Counted from the first letter of the stretch, positions 40,246 to 50,536 are shown. The stretch is 64,000 nucleotides of DNA from Albugo candida (GCA_040437565.1 JBDOQK010000004.1:372001-436000); one strand, 5' to 3'. Notes: generated from the letters alone by a model not told the origin. A program made the numbers and translations.

Positions 40246-41732
40246 ATGATGCGGTTTCTATGGCTTCTAGTGGCTCAATCGTGCTTTAGGAAGGCAGATA
40301 GCAATATACAACATCTGAATTCCGCATTGAGCAGTTTGAAATATGAGAAATACTTGTTTGCAGACCGTAATGGACCATTTGGAATTGGTGGAAGCTCATA
40401 CATTCGCATAAACGCTCATATCGAGGCATTACATCGCGAGACTTCGGCCCATATGATCACAATCCATCGTCTTGATGAATACTTTCACTTTTCAGTCGTT
40501 GTCGTTGTATACACTGAAGTGGAACAGCTCAAAGATTTGGATGAACACACTGCATGCTCACGCGATTACACCGATACTTTTGACAAAAGCTTAAAAGGAG
40601 TTTTGCACGGAGAATTGCATATTATCACACCAAAATCGCCAGTTGACGTCTTTATGGAATATCGTCCGAAAAACAATGGAAAACAATATGTAATGATACT
40701 TCCGTGTTGGAAGCAAAAGGATCAGATCTTTGGGTATCCTGTGAGTGCTTCAGAATTTGTCATGTACCCGATGGAGAATCCTGTGCTGTTTGTGAATGGA
40801 AGTGTCGAGTTCCATAATCCCTACGGATACATTCCGCATATTTTGTATGGCATTTTCCCATTCAGGTGCGATTGAATGATAAAGGGATCGATCGGCTCAT
40901 ATTTTGTCATTTAGTGAGGCTCTGTCGATTCTTTACGGATTTGGATTTGTAAACTTACTTTCACTGAGCGAGAAACGGCTCGGGAAGCTTTCGTTCTGGC
41001 TACAATCGGTCGTATTTGTAGTCGTATTGGCTTCGGGTAGGAGGAAAAGATGTGCCGCATACTTTATTGTAATTTTTCGTATGTCGCAGTCGAAATCATT
41101 TGCTGGCTACTTTCATACAAGTTTTTGAATGAGAAGAAGCGTTCTTTGGTGTGCTCTTACCCTCCGGCAATCCTATTCAATACATTTTTCAAAGCAGTTG
41201 CAGGGGTCCTACTACGAGTTCTCACGACACTGATTTCTCTCGGGTATGGAACGATACGTTCTTGTGTCACAAGGTACAATATTGTGCTTGTTACCGGACT
41301 CGGGATGTTGTACTTTATCTCTATCGCAATCGTCGAAGTCAATGATCGTCTCTATCACTCAGAAAAGCCGCGAAATCCAATGTTTGCTCTATCGGAATCA
41401 ATCACAGTGTCCAGTAATTTGATTTTCATCGGATGGATTTTAAAATCATTTTGCATACCGCGTCACAAATTGAGATTTATGCGTTGTGTCTCAGACAATT
41501 GTGATGCAAAGAATCACTCCCTTTATGCATTTATTGCGATAAGTCTGTGTTGTATGGGGATGGAAGGCGCCATGTAAGTCATCGCATTTGTTCTTTCCCA
41601 ATAACTCGCATCCTTTGTAGCTACCCTGGCATCTTGGTCATGGAATACAAGTATTTGTGGCTTGTTTGGGTCTCTAATCGACTGGCTGTTCATATTGTAA
41701 TACTTTGCATTGTGAATATGCAAAGACCATAG
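40246..41732 (+). CDS. TMEM87/GPR107-family membrane protein, copy B (divergent)
   Basis: Signal-like N-terminus, FHNPYGYIPHILYGIFPF, CSYPPA, LISLGYGTIR, terminal QRP*; several introns; 3' end uncertain. Confidence 0.7.
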
Positions 41733-41943
41733 AATCGATGCTGCCAGCAAAGATCGCGACGTCGTCGACAGGACACTAAGAAGATGAAGGAAAAGCCTCC
41801 AAGACTAATCAGAGTCCGAGTAGGGAGCCCTGGTATAGTTGACTATACAGCAGGAAGGATGTTAAAGTCGAAGAGATCGTAGTCGAAAGAAGACGGGAAT
41901 TGTAAGGGTCACTGGTAGCTACAAATTGCTTGTGGATGATTGA

Positions 41944-43542
41944 TTATCGATTTATTGGATTTCGTATCGAGTTGTGTTGAGTCAATTCTCTACTGGCGTT
42001 TTCAGGTTGAGTGTTTTCCCCAAGGGAAGCTCCAAACTGAGTCGTGTAGTCTCCAAATCCGAATCCAAACGGCGGTGGCGGGTCCCCTCGTTCTGTTGAT
42101 TCCATCAAGCCACCAATTTGATACCCTTGTGGGTTCATACTTGCCAGTTGTGCAACTGCTTCTTGTTCGCCCGTGTTTGAATAAATTACTGAATCGCTTG
42201 AGAGAAAGCTTGGACGAAGTGGTGCCTGTACTCCTTCCAATGACGATTCTATCCTTGCATTTTCCAGAATGGCGGTATTCATACGAAATTCGCCATCTTC
42301 GGCAGCGTTTAATTGGAATCCATCGACGTAATCGAGTATGAGCTTTTCGTTATGATTGACGTCCACAAAGGAAGCAACATCCTGTCCGGCAATTTGCTTC
42401 TTGTCGATCGGTAGCCTCTGTCCATTGACGGGTGATTTCTTCGGACCCGAGTCATTCGTTTCTTTACTCATTCGCGATTTCTTCCTAACCTCAGCCTTTT
42501 GAGCTTTTTCGGACTCAATCTGTTTCACTTCATCGATATCAATCATTGATATACGATTACGTTGTCTTTTGAATCGCCCTGCATCGGCTTTCCGTCGAAT
42601 TTCAGAGCTTAATTCGCTGAAATTCTTCTTCATCGGAGGGGGTAATACAGCTGCTTTGTTCTTCATCATCATACGAGCTCCAGAAGTGCTCGACTGAGAC
42701 AAACTTTGTACCTTTTGCATCTGCGAAAGATTTGACGACATCAATTGACCTTCGTGTGTTTTCTTCACGGATTCTACATTATCCATTAGCTTCATTCAGT
42801 GTCTCGGAGGATCAGTGGAAACCGTACCTCTCGCATCATTTTTCAGTGACGAAGGCGTTGAAACAGTTTGAAAATGCGCTTCCACTTGCACTCTTTCAGA
42901 TGCTCGCGTCGAGTCATTCAAAATCGCATACTCATAGCAATAAGATCCATCCCACAATGAGTTTGTCCGAATGTCATTTTCAGAGGAGTTGAGGACTAAG
43001 AATCCAAACCATTCGATGAGTATCATTCAAATTTGCATCCCGGCAGCATCTGATTACCAGTCTGTATGATTGTATCGATAGCGAGTTGCATCTTTTCATC
43101 CAAAAAAGTCTCTCTCCCGTCTTCAGTTTGTGGGAAAAGATACTTTCGAACCAAACCAGCGGTTATCTTGACCCACTAATGTCGATACTGAATCAGATTG
43201 CGACGTAAACAGCTCATACAAAACGAACCTCTTCTTTGTCGTCTTGCGCCGTCGCAATCATATCGACAATGGTCAGCTTACTGGCTTCAAACACATCTCT
43301 TTCTACGCACAAAAACGAAAGCAATAGTCGCACCTATTCACATTATAATTAACGGGAATTGGCATTGACTCCATTGCTTATGCGGTTACTTTGCTAAAGT
43401 GCGGAAGCGCTTTGTATATATGAGAAGCTTCGTTGATTTTCTCACGTGTCAGTAGCGTGCCAAACTCTGTCGAGCTCCAATCGTGTTTTAATTTGAGTGT
43501 GATCCAATTCTCAGCTGCAGGAATCTCAGTATCAGAGTTCAT
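41944..43542 (-). CDS. NELFA: NELF-A-like protein (negative elongation factor A); exons 43542-43390, 43333-43229, 43175-43058, 42995-42828, 42773-41944
   Basis: The spliced N-terminus WITLKL..DWSSTEFGTLLT..KALPHFSKVRLLLSFL..IVDMIATAQDDKEEWVKITAGLV aligns with the recalled human NELF-A N-terminal domain. All four introns are GT-AG, 53-62 nt and frame-preserving. Confidence 0.75.
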
Positions 43543-43569
43543 GTTATGTTAACTTTACTGAGTTGTTAC

Positions 43570-45161
43570 TTAAACGAGCGACAATGAAGTCAGGCGATTG
43601 TTTACGCGCTTTTGTCGATATCGTTGCAACATTGTGAGGTTTCCAGAGACACCACCCGTGTGTACATATACGATTTCATGTTTTTTACTGAGATCTGAAG
43701 GAAAGAGAAGAGTCTCCAAATTCTCAAACATAACGTGCCATGCAAAACAGCCGTATAAAAGATCAAACTCAATCTTTGTTGACTCTAGTAACTCATGATA
43801 TATGTGGTAGAATGGCATATAAAGCTGACCAAACCGCTTCTTCACTTTGGGAATCAGTATGTTTGGAATAAAAGGATCAAAGTCAAAGCCAAAANNNNNN
43901 NNNNNNNNNNNNNNNNNNNNNNNNNNNNNNNNNNNNNNNNNNNNNNNNNNNNNNNNNNNNNNNNNNNNNNNNNNNNNNNNNNNNNNNNNNNNNNGTTTAC
44001 GCGCTTTTGTCGATATCGTTGCAACATTGTGAGGTTTCCAGAGACACCACCCGTGTGTACATATACGATTTCATGTTTTTTACTGAGATCTGAAGGAAAG
44101 AGAAGAGTCTCCAAATTCTCAAACATAACGTGCCATGCAAAACAGCCGTATAAAAGATCAAACTCAATCTTTGTTGACTCTAGTAACTCATGATATATGT
44201 GGTAGAATGGCATATAAAGCTGACCAAACCGCTTCTTCACTTTGGGAATCAGTATGTTTGGAATAAAAGGATCAAAGTCAAAGCCAAAAGCGAGTTTTTG
44301 GAATTGTGTGCGAAGATATAAGTGATCACCGACGCAGGGAATTGTGTGAACGGTGTGGGCTTTATCGAGAAATTGAGCAAGATAGAATGCTGTCGTTCCT
44401 GTCCCTGATGGGAGAACCACCGACATTGATATACCCCCGGCTTGATGTAGTGCGTACAGATTCAGTTCCATTGCTAATTGCTTAATACCAAACTTGGCTT
44501 CTTGGAATGCCGCGCCGCGTGGAATGAAGATGATACGCTTTCCAGCCCCATAATCCTGAACGATAGAAGATTTGCATTTTTCCTTGACCAACATTTCAAT
44601 ATCATGTCTGGGAAGCGATATACACCGCATTCCGAGCGCGTTAGACGTTGCCATATTTCCTTCGAGTAAATTCTGGTATCGTTCCTGTTCACAGAAATAA
44701 GTAAAAGGCACTTTTTTCAGCTGTGATAGCTGTGCAATTGCAAGCATCGCATTACTGCTAGGTCCACCATAGCTGAATATGTGTGCATCTATATCATAAA
44801 ACCGTATAAACACACGTATACGCTTTTACGCCGATCATATACCATCAAAAAATGAATTGCTCTGCTGCAACAGCCAATGCAATTTTCGCATCTATTAGCA
44901 TGCATTCAACAAGTTAGCAATTCAAAGACTTCTGTATCACGATGATCTTGTGCCTTATTTCCTTCTAATGGTAAAATATCATCGCGTTTGACGTGAATAA
45001 GCTGCTGGCGAAATTGAACGCATTGGATCGGTGAGATTTTCANNNNNNNNNNNNNNNNNNNNNNNNNNNNNNNNNNNNNNNNNNNNNNNNNNNNNNNNNN
45101 NNNNNNNNNNNNNNNNNNNNNNNNNNNNNNNNNNNNNNNNNNGGATCGGTGAGATTTTCAT
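43570..45161 (-). CDS. PLP-dependent D-cysteine desulfhydrase / ACC deaminase-family protein
   Basis: MKISPIQ..VKRDD..GNK/MRKL, SYGGPSSNAM, PSGTGTTA, EFDLLY, YVHTGG; both ends are affected by gap overlaps. Confidence 0.88.
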
Positions 45162-49086: not shown

Positions 49087-49182
49087 GTAAGCGGTTTGTA
49101 GATTATCACTTAACGGAGAGCTATATCAGCTCTTTACACATACCCTTAATTCCTCTCTAACTGTTGCATTTGCTCTGTATAG
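49087..49182 (+). other. 5'-UTR intron of EF1-alpha
   Basis: AG|GTAAGC donor, CTAAC branch point, pyrimidine tract and TAG acceptor 13 nt before the ATG. Confidence 0.8.
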
Positions 49183-49195
49183 GCTCAATAACAAA

Positions 49196-50536
49196 ATGGG
49201 AAAGGAAAAATTTCACATTTCGCTTGTCGTTATCGGTCACGTCGATGCCGGAAAATCAACAACCACAGGTCATATGATCTACAAATGTGGTGGAATTGAC
49301 AAAAGAACCATTGAAAAGTTTGAGAAAGAAGCTGCTCAGTTGAACAAGACTTCTTTCAAGTACGCTTGGGTTGTCGACAAGCTCAAAGCTGAGCGTGAAC
49401 GTGGTATTACGATTGATATCGCCTTGTGGAAATTTGAAGGAGCTGTTCATTCTTTCACTGTCATTGACGCACCGGGTCATCGTGATTTTATCAAAAACAT
49501 GATTACCGGAACTTCTCAAGCTGATGCGTCTATTTTATGTATCGCCTCTGGTGTCGGTGAATTTGAAGCCGGTATTTCAAAAGAAGGACAAACGCGTGAG
49601 CACGCATTGTTGGCTTTCACTTTAGGTGTGAAACAAATGGTAGTTGCAGTCAACAAAATGGACGATGCATCTGTCAAATACTCGCAATCTCGTTTCGATG
49701 AAATTGTAACAGAAGTTGGAACATACCTGACCAAGATCGGATACAAAGCTAACAAATGCACCATGATTCCCATTTCAGGATGGTGTGGTGACAACATGAT
49801 TGAAAAGTCGACTAATATGCCTTGGTACAAGGGTCCGACACTTCTTGAAGCTCTTGACAAATTGGTACCACCAAAACGTCCGACTGACAAGCCATTGCGT
49901 CTGCCTTTACAAGACGTTTACAAGATTGGTGGTATTGGTACGGTACCTGTCGGTCGTGTTGAAACAGGTGTACTCAAACCTGGCATGGTTGTTACATTCG
50001 GACCTATTGGTTTGACCACTGAAGTCAAGTCTGTTGAAATGCATCACGAGTCCCTTGCTGAAGCAACTCCAGGTGACAATGTTGGTTTCAATTGTAAGAG
50101 TGTTGCAGTCAAAGATCTTAAACGAGGATATGTTGCATCCAACAGCAAAGAAGACCCAGCTGTCGGAACTGAAACCTTTACCGCACAAGTCATTATTCTC
50201 AACCATCCAGGTCAAATCTGTAATGGTTACTCTCCTGTGCTCGACTGTCACACCGCCCACGTCGCTTGCAGATTTCAGGAAATCATTGAAAAGATGGATC
50301 GTCGTTCTGGTAAAGTTCTCGAAGCAGCACCAAAGTTCGTCAAGTCTGGCGACGCATGTATGGTAGTGTTGGCACCAACCAAACCCATGACAGTTGAGTC
50401 ATTTTCCGAGTACCCACCTCTGGGACGTTTCGCTGTGCGTGATATGCGTCAGACCGTCGCCGTTGGTGTCATCAAATCTGTCATCAAGAAAGAAGCAACT
50501 GGAGGCAAAGTCACCAAAGCCGGTGCCAAGAAATAA
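49196..50536 (+). CDS. EEF1A: Translation elongation factor 1-alpha
   Basis: [41 protein letters not shown]; intact 446 aa. Confidence 0.99.

Follow-up and report, generated by a model that had tools for sequence, protein, structure and literature searches.

Introduction

Does an oomycete possess NELF-A, the protein which in animals helps to hold RNA polymerase II (Pol II) close to gene starts, and if so, which of its parts have been kept and what could they do there? The question is raised by a locus of Albugo candida, contained in a stretch of 64,000 nucleotides (GCA_040437565.1 JBDOQK010000004.1:372001-436000), which is called the window in the following; all positions are counted from its first letter. 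The original prediction, made from the sequence alone, was that of a hidden, spliced NELF-A-like gene, which would keep the NELF-C-binding domain and part of the so-called tentacle and would imply a NELF complex and possibly regulated pausing.

According to a preprint by Chivu et al. (bioRxiv 10.1101/2023.02.19.529146), NELF-B and NELF-C/D are widespread in eukaryotes, and species with a NELF-B-C/D core have higher pausing indices; NELF-A and NELF-E are treated as later additions. The same source reports NELF-E in metazoans only, apparent NELF-A homologues without the HDAg-like domain in some unicellular eukaryotes, and the HDAg-like domain itself only in animals and Capsaspora; Caenorhabditis elegans is described there as lacking NELF. 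The literature searched for NELF or Pol II pausing in oomycetes contained no relevant study, with the broader queries being judged by their top-ranked results.

Methods

Sequence profiles: Five NELF-A proteins, from animals and choanoflagellates, went into the holozoan profile, 13 non-oomycete members of the family into the broader profile, and three animal NELF-A C-terminal domains into the C-terminal profile.

Splice junctions: Assembled contigs of four public runs were compared with the window over positions 41800-43700.

Structure prediction: An AlphaFold2 model was built with a 52-sequence alignment for the orthologue P0002 of Albugo laibachii, not for the window protein itself.

Tail motif: Matches to a strict regular expression for the motif occurred in 8 proteins, in one of them (P0051) inside the N-terminal domain; counts over alignment columns were used instead.

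Results and Discussion

Gene Structure

The NELF-A-like gene occupies positions 41944-43542 on the minus strand and consists of five exons and four introns (Table 1). Its joined coding sequence of 1374 nt is translated into 457 amino acids followed by a single terminal stop, and an in-frame stop is located two codons 5' of the ATG (ORF 43378-43548). Each intron has the form GT..AG on the minus strand, and the reading frame is kept across all of them.

Table 1. Positions in the window of the exons, introns and protein regions of the NELF-A-like gene of Albugo candida.
Feature	Position	Strand	Remarks
Exon 1	43390-43542	-	Codons 1-51; ATG 43540-43542; junction in contigs of X1, X2 and X10
Intron 1	43334-43389	-	56 nt, GT..AG; skipped in three of four runs (joint 43331/43388, 'cut +2')
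Exon 2	43229-43333	-	Codons 52-86; junctions as in A. laibachii protein P0002
Intron 2	43176-43228	-	53 nt, GT..AG; skipped in three of four runs
Exon 3	43058-43175	-	Codons 87-125 and first base of codon 126
Intron 3	42996-43057	-	62 nt, GT..AG, phase 1; skipped in three of four runs
Exon 4	42828-42995	-	Rest of codon 126 to first base of codon 182; YEYAILN (146), AHFQ (165); NELF-A_N-like region ends here
Intron 4	42774-42827	-	54 nt, GT..AG, phase 1; skipped in three of four runs
Exon 5	41944-42773	-	Codons 182-457 and stop 41944-41946; predicted disordered 'tentacle'
N-terminal domain coding region (spans introns 1-3)	42862-43515	-	Residues ~10-170, helical; profile, PDB and Foldseek matches to NELF-A
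Basic block	42478-42606	-	Residues 238-280; ISMIDIDE (256-263) at 42529-42552, then Lys/Arg cluster

All four introns are exactly skipped (CT..AC on the plus strand) in one contig each of the runs X1, X2 and X10, of which X1 and X10 are equally large and possibly a double entry of the same data; run X7 carries the unspliced form of the locus. For none of the runs does the record state RNA as the source, and X1 and X2 bear this label by a guess; what these contigs demonstrate is the existence of a spliced form, not a level of expression. The window protein and P0002 of A. laibachii (464 aa) can be aligned from end to end without interruption at any of the four junction positions, the identity being 349/457 residues overall (76%) and 140/170 in the N-terminal domain (82%). 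The five-exon gene model is confirmed, and with it the original claim of a gene spliced in frame at GT-AG junctions; the peptide quoted there is the product of exons 1 and 2 and of the start of exon 3. The gene looked hidden because only the ORF of the last exon stands in the protein collection, where it is the sole entry identical to the window (283 aa, P0001). The model is directly transferable to the annotation of the Albugo gene, which is of modest value.

One might suspect a decaying or unexpressed gene copy, since the assembly is fragmented, the window (G+C about 38-44%) containing 19 runs of exactly 100 N, and since none of the runs is recorded as RNA. Against such a suspicion, which we regard as hardly credible, stand the open frame through all five exons, the intron-less contigs in three runs and the identity of 50 out of 51 residues with A. 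laibachii in the conserved block of the tail, compared to 76% overall.

Surroundings of the Gene

A perfect direct duplicate of 295 nt (43600-43894 and 43995-44289) flanks the 100-N run at 43895-43994. The 3' portion of the minus-strand gene located upstream is thereby repeated, and the duplicate looks like overlapping contig ends which were joined by a scaffolder. The ORF of this upstream gene (43570-44070, minus strand) continues past the gap to about 44825 and has no Pfam family; its stop is found 27 nt before the NELF-A ATG (43543-43572). The intron-less contigs cross the boundary between the two genes without a joint, and either the genes are very tightly packed at the 5' boundary of the NELF-A-like gene, or their transcripts overlap. 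Downstream, a convergent ORF (41041-41577, plus strand) encodes a GOST seven-transmembrane domain (36.8 bits). At a greater distance from the gene, an eEF1A/EF-Tu-type GTPase with all four domains present is encoded at 49091-50536 (plus strand).

N-Terminal Domain: Sequence Comparisons

A profile search against NELF-A, proposed with the original prediction as a check, gave a significant result: the spliced window protein scored 62.9 bits (E 1.8e-18) with the five-member holozoan profile, of which residues 1-170 alone reached 57.1 bits, and 89.4 bits with the 13-member non-oomycete profile. The best scores among 1000 shuffles were 6.4 bits and 12.7 bits, respectively; with 62.9 bits against at most 6.4 bits, a resemblance by chance is excluded.

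In the Pfam database, NELF-A_N (PF23553) was the best family for five of eight oomycete orthologues. The curated cut-off of 27 bits was exceeded by one of the eight, the A. laibachii protein P0002 (31.5 bits, E 1.9e-7), and the proteins of Phytophthora kernoviae (25.4 bits) and Plasmopara (24.9 bits) were placed just below it; the full-length Saprolegnia protein P0010 had no NELF-A_N match at E<=1. When the translations of the five exons were scanned singly against Pfam, NELF-A was not found, only a sub-threshold match of exon 4 to YKL104W-A (E 0.097), which is uninformative, because the exons are too short. The last exon produced 0 matches in the PDB by phmmer; the protein search with it produced 13 proteins, the named ones all from oomycetes and several of them with a precomputed PF23553 domain.

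A profile of 11 oomycete sequences, run against all PDB sequences, retrieved human NELF-A as its sole credible match, with the chains 5l3x_A (E 5e-7), 6gml_U (E 5.6e-7) and 8uha_U (E 3.7e-6), followed by matches with E 1.1 and 9.3. The alignments cover residues 17-165 and 22-191 of human NELF-A, including LECQYLN...KHFQ. The human strings quoted in the original prediction are correct where they are visible, namely LWAPPSIASLLT, FHGLSSAVKLKLLLGTL, LMEIIQLASLDSDPWVLMVADIL, LECQYLN and KHFQ in the PDB alignment, and VKLLDISE by way of the barnacle alignment described below. As a single sequence, P0002 matched NELF-A in the PDB weakly (E 0.011-0.13).

Searching 1.84 billion representative sequences with a 10-sequence profile resulted in 381 matches at E<=1e-3, 89 of them at E<=1e-10. 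Names were checked for 20 of the 150 matches listed. Among these 20, the proteins of a barnacle (Pollicipes), of Hydra and of a coral (Montipora) bear the name 'negative elongation factor A'; further matches came from two choanoflagellates, from Amoebozoa (Polysphondylium, Balamuthia, Vermistella), from ochrophytes (Choristocarpus, Chrysoparadoxa, Mallomonas), from the glaucophyte Gloeochaete and from the streptophyte alga Mesostigma. NELF-A_N was above its cut-off in eight of ten non-oomycete matches scanned. The sequence comparisons thus support the view that the window protein is a NELF-A homologue which keeps the domain that in human NELF-A binds NELF-C/D, as had been claimed.

N-Terminal Domain: Predicted Fold

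The model of P0002 had a mean pLDDT of 61.6 and was confident only for the helical N-terminal domain, where blocks of 10 residues over residues 11-100 had means of 88-98; the region of the exon 5 tail was mostly below 60. Comparison of the structure with NELF-A, likewise suggested with the original prediction, was done by Foldseek, and the five best matches of the model were all NELF-A chains, with E-values from 2.8e-5 (6gml_U) to 1.8e-3. Their TM-scores were modest, 0.41-0.52 when normalised by the target (5l3x_A, 0.52), and identity in the fold alignment with human NELF-A was only about 22%. The nearest named clusters of the ESM Atlas carry NELF-A_N, which can serve as a lead only. NELF-A is paired with NELF-C in the entries 5L3X and 6GML; the fold predicted for the A. 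laibachii orthologue matches that human NELF-A domain which pairs with NELF-C/D.

A generic helical-repeat domain joined to a low-complexity basic tail could resemble NELF-A by coincidence, and a few observations would fit such a coincidence: CLASP2, importins and armadillo designs came next in the fold search (E 0.06-1), HEAT-like clusters of the ESM Atlas were found by structure at TM <0.3, and the E-values of the single sequence P0002 against the PDB were weak. It is nevertheless effectively refuted, since the profile scores are at least 50 bits above those of 1000 shuffles, Pfam, the sequence comparison with the PDB and the first ranks of Foldseek all pointed to NELF-A as the sole family, and a profile search starting from the oomycete side recovers animal proteins named NELF-A.

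Tail and Conserved Basic Block

In a comparison of 11 oomycete sequences ranging from Albugo to Saprolegnia, each of the 33 invariant columns lay within one block (P0002 residues 239-280), with the pattern K/R-x-hydrophobic-hydrophobic-D-hydrophobic-x-E followed by a Lys/Arg cluster. Between the window protein and that of A. laibachii it is the stretch with the 50/51 identical residues mentioned above. Outside of the block the tail is lineage-specific. Judged from these alignments, the basic block is the only strongly conserved element of a low-complexity tail which is predicted to be disordered.

HMMER paired the oomycete RISMIDIDE with RVKMLDINE of the barnacle, which in turn aligns to VKLLDISE of human NELF-A (residues 254-261), followed by KRRRK. 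The matched PDB chains comprise only 177-199 modelled residues, and the human VKLLDISE is therefore outside of the modelled part. In the MAFFT alignment of 52 sequences, the Asp column of the motif was D in 24 of the 34 non-oomycetes; the residue preceding it was L or I in 28/34, and E or D was present two positions after it in 24/34. The tail alone (residues 182-457) scored 19.0 bits with the 13-member profile, a value reached by 0 of 2000 shuffles; with the holozoa-only profile it scored 0.7 bits, which was equalled by 334 of 2000 shuffles and is not significant. Homology of the motif rests therefore on the colinear extension of the N-terminal match and on the wider family. Taken together, the alignments show that NELF-A of animals, Amoebozoa and algae has this element too, in a corresponding place relative to the N-terminal domain. 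YEYAILN, AHFQ and ISMIDIDE do occur in the order given in the original prediction, and the alignment of ISMIDIDE with human VKLLDISE supports its claim that part of the tentacle, here a proximal piece, is kept in the window protein.

Hepatitis delta virus (HDV) antigen, or any other family, was considered for the basic block and rejected: in eight orthologues, Pfam at E<=1 yielded nothing in this region except weak low-complexity matches (Atrophin-1, TAF4, Nop14).

Orthologues from Pythium, Phytophthora, Saprolegnia and Aphanomyces share a conserved ...YWR C-terminus, and several of them a tail block Y-x-PDGTQALLNAAF; both Albugo proteins are without either.

Absence of the Animal C-Terminal Domain

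The C-terminal microdomain of human NELF-A (residues 431-528) binds the PHD finger of INTS12, as stated in a recent preprint (bioRxiv 10.64898/2026.06.30.735463). With the profile of the animal C-terminal domains, the window protein scored 1.7 bits (E 2.3), and none of its oomycete orthologues was above 1 bit; hhalign of the oomycete tails with this domain returned a probability of 0.3%. The remark made at the outset, that the animal C-terminal domain is not clearly present, is in agreement with these values, and the comparisons support a window protein which lacks it. The ...YWR end mentioned above resembles, by eye, an animal ...W-R/K-R terminus; its interpretation as a diverged C-terminal domain of animal type was rejected on the hhalign probability of 0.3%.

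The same profile gave 62.7 bits with the protein of Polysphondylium, 31.3 bits with that of Balamuthia, and 33.8 and 26.9 bits with those of choanoflagellates. A C-terminal microdomain is thus detectable in amoebozoan and choanoflagellate proteins (P0087, P0056, P0072, P0073) and is older than the animals; in oomycetes, it appears to have been lost or to have become unrecognisable. Since Pfam defines NELF-A by its N-terminal domain, proteins without the C-terminal microdomain represent a variant and are not excluded from the family.

Possible Function

We consider it probable that the locus encodes the Albugo orthologue of NELF-A and that its product acts as NELF-A does in animals. By analogy, the N-terminal domain would bind to the NELF-C/D (TH1) subunit of a NELF-B-C/D core, with the disordered tail extending across Pol II and DSIF. 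For the conserved basic block, a role as contact point, as nuclear-import signal or as both is conceivable, by which it may stabilise a slowed or paused early elongation complex. With no C-terminal domain and probably no NELF-E, any such pause should proceed without the Integrator-linked checkpoint of animals. By the same analogy, oomycetes may plausibly have a NELF complex and regulate pausing.

Descent from a common NELF-A ancestor would, however, also be compatible with a protein outside any pausing complex, which had an older role in chromatin or transcription and was recruited into NELF later, by animals. An origin of this kind, not connected with pausing, is proposed for non-animal NELF-A homologues in the work by Chivu et al. 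(bioRxiv 10.1101/2023.02.19.529146), where NELF-E is reported in metazoans only; the absence of the INTS12-binding C-terminal domain and the lineage-specific tail outside of the conserved block would agree with it. Yet the part which the oomycete protein has in common with animals is precisely the NELF-C/D-binding domain and the proximal tentacle motif, and NELF-B and NELF-C/D are described as widespread in that preprint (bioRxiv 10.1101/2023.02.19.529146). A weak argument in the same direction is that, of the 20 named matches among the 150 listed, 0 were from yeasts, land plants or C. elegans, lineages which are reported to have lost the NELF core. A role apart from pausing is in our opinion rather improbable.

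Returning to a NELF-A which acts as in animals, a more far-reaching scenario can be formulated, which is tentative and which we would rate as somewhat unlikely as a whole. NELF-A with the proximal tentacle motif would date back to an ancestor which stramenopiles, Archaeplastida, Amoebozoa and animals have in common, instead of having been added late, in Holozoa; a reduced NELF (A, B and C/D) without NELF-E and the Integrator-binding domain would be at work in oomycetes and could still impose a real pause at the 5' end, and the block of 43 residues, hardly altered between Albugo and Saprolegnia, would be the contact to Pol II and DSIF. This block is an obvious target for mutagenesis, and culturable oomycetes could be used for testing the action of a NELF without NELF-E and without the Integrator-binding domain.

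Previous Annotation and Novelty

Public annotation already records the NELF-A family, also for oomycetes. A precomputed PF23553 domain was carried by 23 of the 42 matches of the oomycete search; three matches bear the name 'Negative elongation factor A' (Plasmopara halstedii, Bremia lactucae, Phytophthora megakarya), another ten are called 'NELF-A N-terminal domain-containing protein', and for one, P0029 of Peronospora effusa, the UniRef name is 'HDAg domain-containing protein'. As the family name stands already on public oomycete proteins, the finding is not very surprising; and since apparent homologues from some unicellular eukaryotes are reported by Chivu et al. as well, the novelty implied originally was overstated.

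In the ESM Atlas, the named NELF-A_N clusters nearest to the query occurred most often in diatoms, Apicomplexa and Nematoda. One of them, that of the nematodes, has 179 members, 99% of them with NELF-A_N, which is worth mentioning in view of the reported absence of NELF from C. elegans.

Three points seem to be under-described in the literature searched: the tail motif, which is common well beyond Holozoa; the C-terminal domain of animal type, present in Amoebozoa and missing in oomycetes; and the exceptional constraint on the basic block within oomycetes. The Albugo gene is a well-supported data point for the occurrence of NELF-A beyond animals and their nearest kin. That oomycetes, algae, amoebae and animals have the conserved tail piece in common qualifies the view, expressed in the preprint by Chivu et al. 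(bioRxiv 10.1101/2023.02.19.529146), that the part facing Pol II arose in animals and Capsaspora.

Comparison with Known NELF-A Proteins

With human NELF-A (WHSC2; 5L3X chain A, 6GML chain U; PF23553), the Albugo protein has in common the helical N-terminal domain and the ...YLN...HF... signature. The human protein possesses a long disordered tail with KLLDISE and then a basic cluster, the counterpart in Albugo being ISMIDIDE; the tail of the Albugo protein is otherwise unrelated, the whole protein is shorter (457 versus 528 aa), and the C-terminal microdomain is missing. The orthologues of other oomycetes (A. laibachii AlNc14C122G6704, i.e., P0002; Plasmopara halstedii P0006; Bremia lactucae P0027; Phytophthora) have the same architecture as the window protein and the same near-invariant basic block. 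The amoebozoan homologues of Polysphondylium violaceum (P0087) and Balamuthia mandrillaris (P0056; NELF-A_N 46.8 bits) share the N-terminal domain, and their motif forms KMHFIDLDQ and KLRVLDIKE correspond to the motif of the oomycetes; unlike the oomycete proteins, however, they keep the C-terminal domain of the animal type.
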